NCBI GenBank assembly: GCA_018303225.1
Contig: JAGVYO010000006.1
Span: 1-48,046, forward strand
Direction: 5' to 3'
Origin: Candidatus Woesearchaeota archaeon
GTDB lineage: Archaea > Nanobdellota > Nanobdellia > Woesearchaeales > JAGVYO01
DNA: 48,046 nucleotides
This document shows positions 2,696 through 36,672 of the stretch, piece after piece. Every line of letters begins with the position of its first letter. The first letter of the stretch is position 1. The notes under the pieces were generated by a model that had not been told where the DNA came from, searched no databases, and saw only the letters and a list, made by a program, of their open reading frames with translations. Made by a program: the position numbers and the translations under genes.

Positions 2696-2755
2696 TATAT
2701 TGTGTCTGGTCAGCAAAACACATACAACAGGTTGTGGTGTCGCTGATATTTAAAT
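2696..2755 (-). promoter_or_regulatory. Candidate nrdR-RNR promoter and operator
   Basis: In gene sense: TATA-like TTTAAATA (within 2746..2755), then ACACCACAACCTGTTGTATGTGT (2718..2740; arms ACAAC/GTTGT inside ACAC/GTGT), then ACACAATATA (2696..2705), which matches the left half of the NrdR-box consensus as I recall it. Confidence 0.3.
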
Positions 2756-2912
2756 CTATCTTTTTTACGATGAATCCCCACCACCCATGGTAGAACAGCA
2801 ACAAAAAAAACACAAACTATCGGATTCTTTCTCCGTGCAACTTCTATTTAAGCATTTCTGTTATAAAATATATAATCGGGTTACCTGCCATATGGAAAAG
2901 ATGTAAATATAA

Positions 2913-2952
2913 CAGAAGACCTAAGTTTTTAATAATATTGTTAGGTCTTCTG
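2913..2952. repeat. Perfect 12-bp-stem hairpin
   Basis: CAGAAGACCTAA (2913..2924) and TTAGGTCTTCTG (2941..2952) are exact reverse complements with a 16-nt AT-rich loop. The AAGACCTAAG core resembles the CAAGACC-TTAG junction of family B repeats. Confidence 0.7.
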
Positions 2953-2955
2953 AAT

Positions 2956-3000
2956 ATAATGGGGCCCATTCAAATATTAATCATTCATGTCCCCCATTAT
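2956..3000. repeat. 9-bp inverted repeat
   Basis: ATAATGGGG (2956..2964) and CCCCATTAT (2992..3000), separated by a 27-nt spacer. Confidence 0.6.
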
Positions 3001-3031
3001 AGAAGCAAAAAAGAAACGAATTCCTAAAAAT

Positions 3032-3176
3032 GTCAGAATTTTCCATCCAGTCTTTGACTGGTGGCACAAACTTCCTGTGCCAAAGTTCAGAAAATTCTGA
3101 GCATGCTCAAAAACCACATGAAGCAGACTAGCTCTGCTACAAGCACACTACCCATCTGTGATGGGTGGTTTTTGAC
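3032..3176. repeat. Twin-hairpin (TH) module, expanded copy
   Basis: GTCA-GAATTTTCC[45 nt]GAAAATTC-TGAGCATGCTCA(3098..3109)-AAAACCA[50 nt]GGTTTTT-GAC. Both long loops contain sub-hairpins (CCAGTC/GACTGG, TGGCACA/TGTGCCA, GCAGA/TCTGC, ACCCATC/GATGGGT). Confidence 0.75.
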
Positions 3177-3254
3177 AGGTTTAGGCAGAAATATATTAAA
3201 AATCTGAGAATTAAGATTATTTTTATATAGGTGGAATGGCTCCAAGAGTACATC

Positions 3255-4263: not shown

Positions 4264-4276
4264 CGGCTACGGCAAT

Positions 4277-4411
4277 GTTTTTCTAAGGTCTTCGAATTCA
4301 AAAACCTTACGAAAAACAACGTTTTTCTAAGGTCTTGGAATCAAGAAGATTCCAAAAACCCAACGAAAGCAAAGCTTTCTGGGGTCTTTGAATTCTTCGA
4401 ATTCAAAAACC
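4277..4411 (-). repeat. Family B hairpin-repeat element (copy B1)
   Basis: Reverse complement reads GGTTTTTGAATTC-GAA-GAATTCAAAGACC, then CCAGAAAGCTTTGCTTTCGTTG, then GGTTTTTGGAATC-TTCTT-GATTCCAAGACC, then TTAGAAAAACGTTGTTTTTCGTAA, then a half unit. Collinear with copy B2. Confidence 0.8.
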
Positions 4412-4444
4412 TTTTAAAGGGGCGATTAATTCCTATTCAATCTT

Positions 4445-5296
4445 ATGGCAAAGCAATCCGTACAGGTTCTCGTAAGCGGAGGCCAGGCGACCGCCGCACC
4501 GCCGTTAGGCCCGGCCCTGGGCCCCATGGGCGTGAACATCGGCCAGGTTGTGGGAGATATCAACAAGAAGACCGCCAGCTTTGCCGGCATGCAGGTCCCT
4601 GTCAAAGTCATCGTGGATTCTTCCACCAGGACGTTCGAGATTGAGATCGGTACGCCGCCGGCATCGGCCTTGTTGAAAAAGGAAGCCGGCATTGAGAAAG
4701 GCTCCGGCAATCCGAAAGCAGACAAGGTAGCGGACGTCCTTATCGAGCAGATCATCAAGGTCGCCAAGATGAAAGAGGGCAACCTTCTGGGAAAGACATT
4801 AAAAGAAAAGGTCAAGGAGATCATCGGCACGTGCAATTCCATGGGCATCCTCGTAGAAGGCGTTACGGCCGTAGAAGCCATAAAGCAGGTCAATGAAGGC
4901 AAGTTCGATACGGAAATCAAATCCGAGAAGACCGAATTAACCGCCGAAGAGAAGAAGAAGGTGGAAGAGGAGCGGAAGAGACTGGCCGAAGAGATCCAGA
5001 AGCGCCGTGCCGAGTTCGAAAAGACCGCCAAGGACATCATCGCAGCCATGGCCGGCAAGGAACGCGGAGATATCAAGGCGAAACTGCACGAAGCGGGAAT
5101 CCCCGAAATCATGATCAAGGAGTTGTTACCGGTAGAAGGAGCAGCCGCTGCCGAAGGCGCTGCACCCGGCGCAGCTGGTGCTGGTGCGAAACCGGCCCCA
5201 GGAGCAAAACCCGCTGCGGGTGCGAAACCGGCCGAAGGCGCCAAGGCCGAAGCGCCCAAGAAAGAGGAGAAGAAAGCATCCAAGGAGAAGAAATGA
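4445..5296 (+). CDS. rpl11: Ribosomal protein L11 with ~125-aa C-terminal extension
   Basis: VLVSGGQATAAPPLGPALGPMGVNIGQVV and TPPASALLKKEAG are L11 signatures. After about residue 155 comes a KE-rich helix and an AAPGAAGAGAKPAPGAKPAAGAKPAEGAKAEAPKKEEKK tail. Confidence 0.9.
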   Translation: MAKQSVQVLVSGGQATAAPPLGPALGPMGVNIGQVVGDINKKTASFAGMQVPVKVIVDSSTRTFEIEIGTPPASALLKKEAGIEKGSGNPKADKVADVLIEQIIKVAKMKEGNLLGKTLKEKVKEIIGTCNSMGILVEGVTAVEAIKQVNEGKFDTEIKSEKTELTAEEKKKVEEERKRLAEEIQKRRAEFEKTAKDIIAAMAGKERGDIKAKLHEAGIPEIMIKELLPVEGAAAAEGAAPGAAGAGAKPAPGAKPAAGAKPAEGAKAEAPKKEEKKASKEKK

Positions 5297-5397
5297 GCAG
5301 AATAGTTTATTTTTCAGGCAGCATGCATCATCATCGTTAGTTCTACCCATCATTTATTACATCCATCCAAAAAGAGGTGTCGAGAGGGGGCTATAAA

Positions 5398-5718
5398 ATG
5401 AATCAAAATGGACTCAAAAGCAATGGAAAAGTGCCCGCGAAGGTAAACGATCCTATGTTAAGGGAGGTATTGGAAAAAATTATGGGCGATCCAAAATTAG
5501 AGGGCATCACAATTGAAATTGGCGAAACAGTACGGAGCCACCCAAGCACCCGAGCGTGTTTTGAAGTGGTGAAGAACCACGAGGGAACCCTGGAAACCGT
5601 CGCTGAGGGAGGTATTGGTGGATGTGATCATCGGAGAGTAACTTTCAGAACGGCAAATAGCAGTTACACACCAAAAGATGTTTTGGCCTATCTCAGAGAG
5701 CACTATACGGTGTATTGA
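5398..5718 (+). CDS. Hypothetical protein
   Basis: Track ORF 5377..5718 (GTG). ATG at 5398 follows GAGAGGGGG. No family recognised. Confidence 0.4.
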   Translation: MNQNGLKSNGKVPAKVNDPMLREVLEKIMGDPKLEGITIEIGETVRSHPSTRACFEVVKNHEGTLETVAEGGIGGCDHRRVTFRTANSSYTPKDVLAYLREHYTVY

Positions 5719-5870
5719 CCAAAACATTAATATACTTCTTTCTTTTTTTATTCTTTATGCAATCAATCATGTGTTGTTGCTGATTTCTCCATCGGTTAGT
5801 GTTTAAACTGTTTTTCTGCAGGCCCTTTGTTTTCAGGCTTCTATACATTTCCACAAGGAGGTCATTCACA

Positions 5871-21594: not shown

Positions 21595-21647
21595 TTTGAA
21601 GAGATTTTCAAACAAACATTTCCCATTGGAATTTTTTTATTTTTTCT

Positions 21648-21898
21648 TTGCGGTAAGGCTCATCCCAAAAATTTCGGCACGAAATTTTTGGAATAGTACG
21701 CTTTCGCTAAAAAAATGATGTCAAGCGAAAACCGACCACCACCGGTCGGAGACCGGTGGCATGCTCGCTCGCTTCGCTCGCTCGGGTCGGTTTTCTGGAC
21801 CCTCAATTTTCCATGAGGTCGGTTTTCTGGACCCTCAATTTTCCATGAGTCATTTGACCACCACTCCGAGAGTGGTGGAAAATTGAGATTTTAATGCG
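21648..21898 (+). repeat. Family A element (copy A2) carrying a 167-nt nested-hairpin insertion
   Basis: TTGCGGTAAGGCTCATCC-CAAAAATTTCG-GCA-CGAAATTTTTG...AAAAAATGATG, then an insertion at 21721..21887, then ATTTTAATGCGTT. Confidence 0.8.
21786..21849 (+). repeat. Perfect 32-bp tandem duplication
   Basis: GTCGGTTTTCTGGACCCTCAATTTTCCATGAG occurs at 21786..21817 and again at 21818..21849. Confidence 0.95.
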
Positions 21899-22146: not shown

Positions 22147-22176
22147 CGACCAGAGGATTTAAGGCTGATTTATAAA

Positions 22177-22273
22177 GGTTTTGAAATCTGAAAGATTGCA
22201 AGACCCCAGAAAGCTTCGCTTTCGTTGGGTTTTGAAATCCGAAGGATTTCAAGACCTTAGGAAGCATAACTTC
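22177..22273 (+). repeat. Family B element (copy B2)
   Basis: GGTTTTGAAATCT-GAA-AGATTGCAAGACC, then CCAGAAAGCTTCGCTTTCGTTG, then GGTTTTGAAATCC-GAA-GGATTTCAAGACC, then TTAGGAAGCATAACTTCC. The last hairpin overlaps the final codons of rtcA on the opposite strand. Confidence 0.8.
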
Positions 22274-23360
22274 CGCAAGCTTGTTGTTTTGCCCGGATAA
22301 TCTTTTTTTCACGGTCAATCTCAAAACAGGGGCCCAGGAACTGCTCGATCACGTAGATGTTGGTAAGCACATGGTTCGTGATTTTGGAAACCGTAATCTC
22401 GCCTCCGAACAGGGCCAACCAGGGCAGCAGATTGTCTGCCAGATATTCGTCCACCGGCGTTTTGTACCCGATCTCGTTGGTCAGCCGCTCCGCCGCCTCT
22501 TTGCCCACGACTTCTGATTTCCTGCCCTTCTCCCCCAGCGCATCGGCGCCGACACGATTGGTTTTTTCGCCATCCGTGGAGAAAACCGCCCACAGCATGA
22601 TGCCCGATCCCGTGCAGGAGGAAGGCGCATACACTTCCTCGACCGAGAGCGGGCATTTCAGGTCCGATAAGATCACCTTGGCAGCCTGGCTTTGGCGTTC
22701 GGCGACCTTGGCGGCCTGCAGATCCTGGGACGCATGGCTGATGCCCCTGACATGCACCAGCGTGCCCTGCTCCATCAGCCTCAACGGCTTGTCTTCGGCC
22801 CGGAGATAATCCCACAGTGCCGAAAAATCCCTGAAATCCGCCAGCGTGTACGGGCTTTCCACCGAGACTTCCACTTTGCCGCCGCCGGCCGGATAATAGC
22901 CCCGCCGGATCAACCGAAAATCTACCTGCCCGTAAGGAGCCAGCACCGGAAGAAGGACCTCGCTGAAATAGTCCGCGGGCATGCTCCATTTCGTATCGGT
23001 TCCGCCGGTGATGCGCAGAAAGATTTTCCGCTCGGTAAAGAAGCAGGGCAGCAGCAACGCCTGCAGCAGCAACGTGATGGAGCCCGCGGTCTTGATATCG
23101 ATGACCAGCGTCCTTGTCTTCAGGCCGTGCGGCGTGAATTTCAGGCGTTCGGATCCGAGAACAGCCCCCTCCACTTCGGCATCGCACAATTCCTGCAGCG
23201 CCTTGATGGCGTACAGGTGCTGGTTCTTCAGCCCGCCCGAACAGCGGCCCTTGCGGATGTTGGAAACCTCAAACGGCTGCTGCGTCAATGCCGAAAATGC
23301 CAATGCTGTCCGGACAATCTGGCCGCCGCCTTCGCCGTAGTTCCCATCCAGGCTGATCAT
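22257..23360 (-). CDS. rtcA: RNA 3'-terminal phosphate cyclase
   Basis: MISLDGNYGEGGGQIVRTALAFSALTQQPFEVSNIRKGR is the RtcA N-terminal signature. Typical length. Confidence 0.9.
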   Translation of the reverse strand: MISLDGNYGEGGGQIVRTALAFSALTQQPFEVSNIRKGRCSGGLKNQHLYAIKALQELCDAEVEGAVLGSERLKFTPHGLKTRTLVIDIKTAGSITLLLQALLLPCFFTERKIFLRITGGTDTKWSMPADYFSEVLLPVLAPYGQVDFRLIRRGYYPAGGGKVEVSVESPYTLADFRDFSALWDYLRAEDKPLRLMEQGTLVHVRGISHASQDLQAAKVAERQSQAAKVILSDLKCPLSVEEVYAPSSCTGSGIMLWAVFSTDGEKTNRVGADALGEKGRKSEVVGKEAAERLTNEIGYKTPVDEYLADNLLPWLALFGGEITVSKITNHVLTNIYVIEQFLGPCFEIDREKKIIRAKQQACGSYAS

Positions 23361-23390
23361 ACAAAGAAAAGAAAAAGAAGGAATTTAAAA

Positions 23391-23531
23391 GGTTTTGGGA
23401 TTCAAAGAATCCCAAGACCCTAGAAAGCCCTGCTTTCGTAATAGCAAATTGCAAAAATAATGGAACTTTTTTGACGCAATTTGCTATTCTAGCAAAGCTC
23501 ACAAAAGTTCATAGATTAATGAGCTTTGCTA
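23391..23531 (+). repeat. Family B element (copy B3) plus two long perfect hairpins
   Basis: GGTTTTGGGATTC-AAA-GAATCCCAAGACC, then CTAGAAAGCCCTGCTTTCGTAA, then TAGCAAATTGC(23442..52)/GCAATTTGCTA(23476..86) and TAGCAAAGCTCA(23490..501)/TGAGCTTTGCTA(23520..31). Confidence 0.8.
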
Positions 23532-23541
23532 TAAGGTTTGC

Positions 23542-25276: not shown

Positions 25277-25346
25277 GCTATCCCTCCTTTTTTGACAAGA
25301 TTCAATTTGAACAGATTAATTTTCCATTGAAATTTTTTAATTTTTA

Positions 25347-25432
25347 GTTGGATAGGGAAATCCCAAAAATTCCGTGCCGGAATTTTTGAATTAAGCACAA
25401 CCTAAAAATAAAGGTTTTTTAGATTAATGCGC
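25347..25432 (+). repeat. Family A element (copy A3)
   Basis: GTTGGATAGGGAAATCC-CAAAAATTCCG-TGC-CGGAATTTTTG...TTAATGCGC. The hairpin is identical to copy A1. Confidence 0.75.
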
Positions 25433-26790: not shown

Positions 26791-26974
26791 CTGCGGTAAG
26801 GCCCAAAGGAAAAATGACGCATTGGCAAAAGCCTTTTTATGGGAGAGGGGTTCATTGCAAAATGTCAGAAACCTTTAGGTTTCTGATCATGCTCAAGAAC
26901 CAAAGGTTCTTGACAATTTCATGCCGAAATTTTTGGGCTAATCGCTATCGCTTAAAGAATATTTTTTAATGCGC
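26791..26974 (+). repeat. Family A element (copy A4) interrupted by a TH module
   Basis: CTGCGGTAAGGCC..., then TH module 26864..26914, then AATTTCATGCCGAAATTTTTGGGCTAATCGCTATCGCTTAAAGAATATTTTTTAATGCGC. Confidence 0.75.
26864..26914. repeat. Twin-hairpin (TH) module, compact copy
   Basis: GTCA-GAAACC-TTTA-GGTTTC-TGATCATGCTCA-AGAACC-AAA-GGTTCT-TGAC. Confidence 0.85.
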
Positions 26975-28740: not shown

Positions 28741-28806
28741 CAGCAAAAATTTCCGTAGGAAATTTTTGGTTCAATCGCTAACGCAACATAAATAAGAAAC
28801 AGTGCA
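28741..28806 (+). repeat. Family A element (copy A5, partial)
   Basis: CAAAAATTTCC-GTA-GGAAATTTTTG (28744..28768), then CGCTAACGCAACATAAAT...GTGCAC. Confidence 0.7.
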
Positions 28807-36444: not shown

Positions 36445-36549
36445 TATAAAAAAGTTGCTATATGGGGAACAAGATTGGATATATTAAGAGGGAAACATTT
36501 GAAAAAAATGATGCATTTGAAAGAATTTCTTTTTAACGAAAGAGGAAGT

Positions 36550-36600
36550 GTCAAAAACCGTTAGGTTTTTGAGCATGCTCAGAAATCTTTGATTTCTGAC
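36550..36600. repeat. Twin-hairpin (TH) module, compact copy
   Basis: GTCA-AAAACC-GTTA-GGTTTT-TGAGCATGCTCA-GAAATC-TTT-GATTTC-TGAC. Enclosed by GAGGAAGT (36543..50)/ACTTCCTC (36610..17). Confidence 0.85.
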
Positions 36601-36604
36601 AGAG

Positions 36605-36672
36605 CAAAAACTTCCTCCGGAAATTTTTGGATTGGTCGCTATCGCAACAAAAAATAAAAAAGAAGTTTAATG
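36605..36672 (+). repeat. Family A element (copy A6, right part)
   Basis: CAAAAACTTCC-TCC-GGAAATTTTTG-GATTGGT-CGCTATCGCAACAAAAAATAAAAAAGAAGTTTAATGG. Confidence 0.75.

Follow-up and report, generated by a model that had tools for sequence, protein, structure and literature searches.

Twin-hairpin modules and their surroundings

The window analysed here, 48,046 nucleotides of DNA from a Candidatus Woesearchaeota archaeon, is an ordinary archaeal chromosome segment of 50% GC with AT-rich spacers. Its genes include those for aIF5B, RtcA, an archaeal CCA-adding enzyme, Trm1, L11, P0/P1, RibH, dCTP deaminase, thymidylate kinase and MoxR/VWA proteins. Among these housekeeping genes lie four intact copies of a twin-hairpin module, at intervals of 10 to 24 kb, and one degenerate copy, all of them intergenic (Table 1). 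The four intact copies share the frame (A)TGTCA-hairpin-TGA(G/T)CATGCTCA-hairpin-TGACA(T), and a script for hairpins of the form TCA plus 6 nt...6 nt plus TGA finds all eight hairpins perfectly paired. The coordinates and stems that an earlier note had given for the four copies agree exactly with ours. The hairpin foot, TCA+RRA.../...TYY+TGA, yields stems of 9 to 13 bp, and the frame, with outer ends (A)TGTCA and TGACA(T), is longer than that note had it. The exact 12-mer TGAKCATGCTCA occurs in the window only at the four sites, where by our own arithmetic about 0.01 chance occurrences would be expected in the whole window. A covariance model (R1) built on 38 copies from other genomes, and run on the window without filters, matches at the same four sites only, with scores of 73, 71, 49 and 28 bits and E values from 1e-13 to 4e-4.

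The repeating unit can be written 5'-[AT]G-TCARRA...TYYTGA-GC[AT]-3'. One module is a unit plus an inverted unit with a common central AT, which gives the core TGAGCATGCTCA; the flanks read A.ATG outside and GCATGC inside, and all of 164 flanks have a T at the second base before TCA. Adjoining modules are joined through TGAC-AT-GTCA, again with AT in common, and in the module chains found at loci L096, L055, L046, L099 and L003 the core GCATGC and the junction CATG alternate in a head-to-head/tail-to-tail arrangement.

Copy 1 lies between two gene starts, that of a NrdR-like gene on the minus strand and that of a 106-aa gene on the plus strand. The spacer is thus divergent, as reported earlier, but by ORF calls (2717 to 3230 or 3254) it is about 515-540 nt long and not 574 nt. 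The arms of this copy are homologous to those at L080, L063 and L055. Copy 3 is 92-94% identical to copies at L107 and L028, whose gene contexts are unrelated. Copy 4 is separated by 5 nt from the preceding stop codon, that of ribosomal protein P1, and by 40 nt from the DUF7121 gene that follows. The degenerate fifth copy scores 56 bits under a further model (R2) and is kept in L098 with compensated changes in two stems; the earlier count of four therefore stands for intact copies and falls short as a complete count.

Table 1. Positions of the hairpin elements in the window
Feature	Positions	Strand	Details
Copy 1, both arms expanded	3030..3177	.	core TGAGCATGCTCA 3098-3109
Copy 1, beta-type arm	3033-3100		foot TCAGAATTTTC/GAAAATTCTGA, 11 bp
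Copy 1, alpha-type arm	3107-3175		foot TCAAAAACCAC/GTGGTTTTTGA, 11 bp
Copy 2, compact	26862..26916	.	arm 26865-26886 (GAAACC); core TGATCATGCTCA 26884-26895; arm 26893-26913 (AGAACC)
Copy 3, compact	36549..36601	.	alpha arm 36551-36572 (AAAACC); core 36570-36581; beta arm 36579-36599 (GAAATC)
Copy 4	46769..46865	.	compact arm 46772-46792 (AGAATC); core 46790-46801
Copy 4, expanded beta arm	46799-46862		GAATTTTCC, 13-bp foot
Fifth copy, degenerate, both arms expanded	21722..21886	.	core TGGACCCTCA degenerate; 32-nt internal duplication
Fifth copy, expanded left unit	21722-21798		foot GAAAACCGACC/GGTCGGTTTTC
Fifth copy, expanded right unit	21835-21886		foot TCAATTTTCC/GGAAAATTGA
Second hairpin family	14242-14327, 21636-21700, 25334-25404, 26915-26951, 28742-28799, 36603-36660, 43882-43961		
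Third hairpin family	22167-22276 (two tandem copies), 23381-23439	plus	
Third hairpin family	4275-4412 (three copies)	minus	

Other hairpin families share the spacers of the window. Perfect hairpins with a stem of at least 9 bp and a loop of 3-8 nt number 16, whereas block shuffles that preserve composition yield about 1. Almost all of the 16 lie between genes and can be assigned to a few families, and in general the organism seems to retain or create perfect palindromes in its spacers. The second family consists of perfect AT-rich palindromes, CAAAAATTYC-nnn-GRAATTTTTG, which lie between two conserved blocks, GCGGTWAGGCTCATCC and TCGCTATCGC, and could be a bidirectional terminator or promoter module. 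Members of this family directly adjoin copies 2 and 3; the one next to copy 3 shows a loop flip and two substitutions between strains, and another member has a stem SNP. The third family has the form GGTTTTG-variable perfect stem-CAAGACC, followed by a small AGAAAGC...GCTTTCG hairpin. In most of its copies the fourth stem position is a conserved mismatch, T·G (or A·C), each copy has its GGTTTT-first orientation opposite to the flanking genes, and RtcA is flanked by the family on both sides. A further two-hairpin module with feet TAGCAAA/TTTGCTA and long loops, found at 23431-23538 of the window, is 77-83% identical to loci in two Woesearchaeota-type MAGs (L021 6807-6883 and L033 1444-1547) and in L021 directly abuts a twin hairpin.

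Two genes of the window merit separate mention. The L11 gene (4445-5296) encodes 283 aa here and in other strain contigs, of which the first 137 residues make up the L11 domains; the remaining tail is Ala/Pro/Gly-rich and carries 18-nt tandem repeats at 5179-5250. At 1-2716, the NrdR-like regulator (zinc ribbon plus ATP-cone) adjoins a gene for the large subunit of ribonucleotide reductase. Given that NrdR is mainly bacterial, its presence in this archaeon may reflect gene transfer.

Spread and structure in other genomes

We scanned one genome per prokaryotic species with the pattern GTCARRA-N10-20-TGAKCATGMTCARRA and obtained at least 119 loci. Among the matches listed, about 92 loci carry the labels Woesearchaeota, Pacearchaeota, Nanoarchaeota/Nanoarchaeia or Micrarchaeia (with some low-GC TPA MAGs otherwise titled), and about 27 are bacterial, lack hairpins and are about as numerous as chance would give. 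The frame search in related genomes that the earlier note had proposed thus yields at least about 95 further copies of the module outside the window, in DPANN MAGs of 25-62% GC, with up to five copies within 8 kb at L079. Model R1 finds further copies with the variant cores TGAGCACGCTCA, TGAGTGTGCTCA and TGAACACACTCA, all with intact hairpins, and core variants such as CACG, TGTG and CACA are tolerated with the hairpins kept, indicating that the foot is retained even where transitions alter the central CATG. The scan of viral contigs gave three matches, all of them chance matches without hairpins, and no module copy; on this ground a virus or plasmid origin was rejected. The 276-aa protein that adjoins copy 4 has as relatives one contig of the same population and 13 distant loci, and the nine of these distant loci that were searched hold no module. 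The literature on the core sequence and on DPANN or Woesearchaeota hairpin repeats holds nothing on this family. The feature is real and widespread, and the family is apparently undescribed.

Within some genomes the family has recently multiplied. The Woesearchaeota MAG JACQXV has at least six copies of a 210-nt composite repeat that includes the module (90-96% identity), JACPMZ has two 94-nt copies that are 88% identical, and CAZBTP has two 258-nt copies; such multiplied copies bear variable amounts of flanking sequence. The 210-nt composite (L012 626-834; also L015, L030, L062, L088, L092, L076 and L014) consists of at least five hairpins, of which the twin hairpin occupies the centre. Three of its stems are compensated between lineages, for example ATCGGTC/GACCGAT versus ATCCGCC/GGCGGAT, and a T5 run marks its end; the repeat may be either a multicopy small RNA or a non-autonomous element of larger size.

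The module also turns up under unexpected labels. TPA MAG records titled "uncultured Methanosarcinales archaeon", with 27-50% GC, bear the same module as Woesearchaeota MAGs (L005, L006, L014, L017, L028, L035, L044, L048, L052, L055, L056, L058, L066, L068, L075, L080, L083, L084, L086, L087, L090, L091, L095, L096, L101 and L107), and L001, titled Alphaproteobacteria and of 36% GC, has a proper module. Since these records share near-identical composite repeats with Woesearchaeota MAGs (L014 versus L076, 85%), the "Methanosarcinales" label is in doubt, and the labels or binning of these MAGs and of L001 look doubtful. The module could serve as a taxonomic marker that flags mislabelled MAGs.

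The scan pattern left the 3' arm of the second hairpin unconstrained. Among the listed matches, and with mismatches allowed, all nine foot pairs are Watson-Crick in 148 of 196 hairpins and eight of the nine in a further 42, so that 190 of the 196 have at least eight; of 130 core matches, 71 have both arms perfect for at least 8 bp and a further 27 have a single arm of this kind. Across 38 compact copies, both sides have changed in 12 stem pairs (144 cells), a level of covariation reached in none of 500 shuffles, and sliding the partner column abolishes the pairing; as these 38 copies were pre-filtered for pairing, the unfiltered count over 196 hairpins is the fairer measure. The covariation consists of Watson-Crick to Watson-Crick double changes only: stem positions 4-8 hold two G·T and three A·C among about 980 cells, and only one mismatch recurs, TCG...TGA at the outer foot (13 cases). 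The earlier argument that a conserved frame with compensated stems speaks for selection on structure is strengthened by these double changes and by the further copies.

Arm types such as GAAACC, GAAATG, GAAATC, AAAACC and AGAACC, among others, recur across genomes. When arms of the form RRAACY are called alpha and all others beta, the pairings are 42 alpha-beta, 5 alpha-alpha and 18 beta-beta, as compared to 31, 10 and 23 expected, and the G-to-T variant of the core is always on the alpha side (9 to 0); the copies are related, so both counts are indicative only. The window copies differ from each other in arm type, and each is nearer to copies in other genomes. The arms of copy 1 are 84% identical over 83 nt to those at L080 and also match L063, in genomes of 34-36% GC. 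Identical module types stand in unrelated gene contexts across genomes, and four orthologous doubly expanded modules have unrelated neighbour genes.

Eight expanded arms of beta type have one layout, namely a long foot, a single-stranded stretch, a hairpin A, and a hairpin B (CCACCNGT...ACNGGTGG) that abuts the 3' strand. Model R2 finds more expanded arms in L038, L063, L026, L059, L109 and L079. All five doubly expanded modules (copy 1, window 21722-21886, L055, L063 and L080) have the same layout on both sides if each insert is followed from the core toward the outer end, so that dyad symmetry extends to the entire module with its inserts. Compact forms of the same feet exist, for example at L084 and L035, and the spacing of half-sites varies from 19 to 94 nt. 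The inserts are kept across genomes with compensated stems; thus the sub-hairpins already seen in the expanded loops are conserved structured inserts with dyad symmetry, and not random filler. Hairpin loops flip between otherwise identical copies, as in L024 (TCC) and L033 (GGA) of the same MAG and in L012 (AAA) and L014 (TTT), and among hairpins with the same stem 5 of 81 distinct loop pairs are exact reverse complements, as compared to about 1.3 expected. A polarity of the loops relative to the core first seemed real; after removal of duplicates the count was 52 versus 40 (p = 0.25), and it was rejected.

Strand symmetry, gene context and residence

The module looks alike on both strands. 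Copy 2 scores 73.4 bits under R1 on the plus strand and 70.8 bits on the minus strand, DNA folding is equally strong on both strands (z from -6 to -7.7), and the loop bases have no strand bias. Its gene context shows equally little preference. Among the listed matches, 67 classified spacers divide into 23 of class --, 19 of ++, 13 of -+ and 12 of +-, which are near-random proportions, and the alpha-to-beta orientation runs with co-directional genes in 7 cases and against them in 11. All-against-all BLAST of 483 neighbouring ORFs revealed no element-linked gene family.

We found no TATA-like sequence at a fixed distance (-25 to -35) on either side of the modules, and a promoter hypothesis was rejected for want of such a positional signal. 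No consistent T-run occurs at the modules. Rfam 15 at the gathering score gives no match in the window and, on 12 loci, only SRP RNA and RNase P RNA elsewhere in L096 and L080; nothing credible appears around copy 1 (E up to 10) or the L012 composite (E up to 5). A tRNA-like reading of the expanded arms was rejected, since ARAGORN finds no tRNA in the window and a tRNA lies within 50 nt of a copy in 3 of 60 loci, about the chance level. Inspection of the sequences and folds likewise eliminated a C/D-box reading (no RUGAUGA/CUGA pairs), a bulge-helix-bulge reading (at most a single-nucleotide bulge, where such a site has two 3-nt bulges 4 bp apart) and an H/ACA reading (an internal loop on one side only, where a pseudouridylation pocket and an ACA box would be expected). 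The features that normally mark an RNA element are thus all missing, although a strand-symmetric motif could still work in any transcript. Locus L096 has, at 5306-5479 and 5505-5777, about three modules in a chain that stops 33 nt short of the gene for an archaeal SRP RNA; nothing but the TATA-like ATATTTAAAAAT separates the two. The earlier note had left the choice between RNA and a DNA cruciform open; the near-absence of wobble pairs, the equal strand scores, the lack of a positioned TATA-like sequence and the lack of orientation bias lean toward DNA or a strand-independent form.

In other samples, contigs of this population that are 99.0-99.9% identical to the window contain all four copies in 19 contig-by-locus observations (2-8 contigs per locus), and no window copy is polymorphic for presence among them. 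Copy 1 is unchanged in two other strain contigs, copy 2 in six and copy 3 in three; copy 4 is present in eight, one of which (L156) carries the only module SNP within the population, an uncompensated change at 46789. The modules thus have 1 SNP in 1649 nt, other spacers 19 in 7313 nt and coding DNA 206 in 44223 nt (0.47%), a deficit in the modules with a Poisson probability of 0.006 against the overall rate that is not significant against spacers alone (p = 0.15). Being fixed and conserved, the module behaves in this population as a long-resident and probably domesticated element, not as an active parasite.

A partner enzyme was sought around the copies. The window contains no transposase or integrase. 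The IS200/IS605, RAYT or TnpB gene that the earlier note had proposed to look for was found neither in the window nor in the 4 kb on either side of about 95 copies; for these flanks the query for IS200-type TnpA was an approximate IS608 TnpA sequence, and the lack of a match is weak evidence.

Interpretation and comparison with known systems

Several explanations could account for the module. An orientation-independent structured RNA motif, whose two stem-loops with their conserved foot and GCAUGC linker would be the target of an RNA-binding protein or a nuclease conserved in archaea, is the main rival of the reading favoured below and is in our judgment unlikely. It could stabilise transcripts, punctuate their processing or release the inserts as small RNAs, and its reverse-complement-symmetric design would permit function in either orientation. 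The strongly conserved and covarying structure agrees with such a motif, as do the folding of copy 1 as RNA (z = -5.7) and of the expanded arms (z from -3.2 to -7.2), the inserts conserved across genomes with compensated stems, the near-invariance of the elements within the population, and the position of some copies directly before RNA genes, namely SRP RNA (L096) and tRNAs (L044 and L046). The recurrence of the same arm types and inserts in unrelated contexts across genomes of 25-62% GC indicates purifying selection, and the function under selection could equally be that of an RNA. An RNA motif is at odds, however, with the lack of an Rfam family match at E values up to 10, the near-absence of G·U pairs, the equal strand scores, the lack of a fixed-distance TATA-like sequence or consistent T-run, and the lack of orientation bias relative to flanking genes; moreover, the inserts of doubly expanded modules face opposite ways, so that one transcript would carry one sense and one antisense insert.

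Three further explanations are far less probable. A double-stranded DNA site for a palindrome-binding regulator or chromosome-organising protein, with the core TYYTGAGCATGCTCARRA as operator and the outer GTCARRA as auxiliary half-sites, would suit the 18-bp palindrome of the core, the fourfold repetition of one half-site and the intergenic position of copies, some of which abut a TATA-like sequence. We regard it as very improbable, since it leaves unexplained the constant complementarity of variable stem bases and the 19-94 nt range of half-site spacing, and since no particular genes are associated with the module and the CACG, TGTG and CACA core variants are tolerated while the hairpins are kept. 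We rank slightly lower still the reading as an active MITE whose terminal inverted repeats would be TGTCARRA/TYYTGACA and which a DDE transposase would mobilise. The TG...CA ends, the within-genome multiplication and the fact that orthologous spacers differ in holding a copy (the spacer after aIF5B has a twin-hairpin module in L079 and a different hairpin module in the window) would accord with it. Yet flanking direct repeats of 3 bp or more are not in excess, whichever boundary offset is taken, hence there is no target-site duplication, and about 0.75 Mb of loci contain no longer element with the same ends, that is, no kb-scale arm pairs enclosing ORFs. Multiplied copies also have variable amounts of flanking sequence, the population of the window shows no insertion polymorphism, and the window copies all differ in arm type, each being nearer to copies of other genomes. 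A bidirectional transcription terminator is the least probable of the readings. The module is hairpin-rich and intergenic, and GGTTTTT closes the alpha arms of the AAAACC type. In archaea, however, termination depends on oligo-T tracts, and a T5 run is missing from most arms; copies lie about as far from gene 3' ends (median 153 nt) as from gene starts (median 120 nt); and 13 of the 67 classified spacers, that of copy 1 included, are divergent and have no gene 3' end. The earlier view that a simple terminator role does not fit is thus borne out by copies that occupy tandem, divergent and convergent spacers in roughly random proportions.

The reading that we favour, with slightly less than even confidence, is that the module is a doublet of extragenic palindromes, an archaeal counterpart of the bacterial REP pairs (BIME/REPIN) that would act at the DNA level as extruded hairpins. 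In its favour are the stem pairing far above chance, the double changes, the near-absence of wobble pairs, the equality of the strands, the lack of a link to transcription, the inverted units with two alternating linkers and mostly unlike arms, the dyad symmetry of expanded arms, the within-genome duplications, the loop flips, the aIF5B spacer that has a module in L079 but none in the window, and the lack of a target-site duplication. We infer that each arm would extrude from either strand, in the form of a perfect hairpin, wherever the DNA becomes single-stranded or carries negative supercoils. A putative structure-specific protein would read the invariant foot and the CATG-containing linker, while the hairpin tips would be free to vary or to bear structured inserts, and mismatched arms would presumably be removed by selection or corrected inside the hairpin. 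Observation covers the anatomy, the covariation, the strand symmetry, the taxonomic spread, the within-genome duplications and the conservation in the population, whereas the extruded hairpins, the protein partner and a copying mechanism are inferred. This REP-like reading at the DNA level is weakened by the failure to find a partner enzyme in the window or, with a weak query, within 4 kb of about 95 copies. It is also weakened by the absence of a GTAG/CGTC tag, by palindromes that are perfect whereas those of REPs are imperfect, and by the lack of presence/absence polymorphism together with 1 SNP in 1649 nt in the population.

Given that DPANN genomes are small and streamlined, so widespread a conserved non-coding family is unexpected. 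The same core in genomes of 25-62% GC, fixed and near-invariant in a population, argues for a conserved molecular partner and probably a cellular role. The core TGAGCATGCTCA with its flanking feet is a simple sequence handle for a search for that partner by phyletic co-occurrence, and could help to test how perfect palindromes are maintained and to ask whether the conserved inserts are small RNAs.

For comparison with REP, BIME and REPIN elements we relied on published descriptions (PMC3733652, PMC3333891, bioRxiv 10.1101/2021.07.10.451892) and general background. Like REP/BIME elements, twin hairpins are short extragenic palindromes with many copies per genome, paired in inverted orientation with fixed linkers and arranged in alternating head-to-head/tail-to-tail arrays. 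In both, the two partners are mostly unlike, Y joining Z in E. coli and alpha joining beta in the twin hairpin; both also lack target duplications, persist for long periods and are conserved within populations. In contrast, REPs carry a GTAG (or CGTC) tag, neither form of which occurs at the flanks of the twin hairpin, and their stems are imperfect and GC-rich whereas those of the twin hairpin are perfect and AT-rich. Each twin-hairpin arm is its own hairpin, so that two REP-like units do not pair together as they do in REP pairs, and the 12-nt core and the foot are conserved across lineages of 25-62% GC whereas REP families are usually genus-specific. REP/REPIN systems have a RAYT (Y1 HUH) transposase, whose gene lies in the same genome and is typically flanked by REPs; none was found near twin hairpins in the window or, with the approximate query, within 4 kb of about 95 copies. 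Without a GTAG/CGTC tag or a RAYT to be found, and with perfect stems, the module is not filed as a member of a REP family.

Other small elements resemble the module in part. The Correia/NEMIS, ERIC and RUP MITEs are likewise small intergenic inverted-repeat elements that can fold as long hairpins, but they have target-site duplications and related autonomous insertion sequences, neither of which we found for the twin hairpin. Integron attC sites, which are recognised as folded single strands, are also palindromes that vary in length and are free to vary in the centre, but are conserved at their ends. The twin hairpin differs from attC in its end motifs (TCARRA/TYYTGA as compared to RYYYAAC/GTTRRRY), in having no extrahelical bases save a possible single G/C beside the foot, and in the lack of cassette arrays and of a nearby integrase. 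The mitochondrial double-hairpin or repetitive hairpin-forming elements of fungi and sponges (PMC2800124) also consist of two adjacent stem-loops as one dispersed intergenic unit, with structure kept more than sequence and no known transposase. They are, however, organellar, GC-rich and lineage-specific, and they have neither the palindromic core nor the tip inserts of the twin hairpin.

Of the Y1 subclasses, only the IS200 type is known in archaea (PMC6006769), and REPINs are reported not to be detected in archaea (bioRxiv 10.1101/2021.07.10.451892). Against this background it is possible, and we propose it tentatively, that the twin hairpins represent the first archaeal REPIN/BIME-like system. 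Such a system would be a class-wide (Nanoarchaeia/DPANN), vertically maintained, dyad-symmetric double hairpin whose foot and core are read by a putative structure-specific protein and whose tips hold conserved structured inserts, and it would be a new type of host-integrated ssDNA (or dual-strand) hairpin system, not a decayed transposon.
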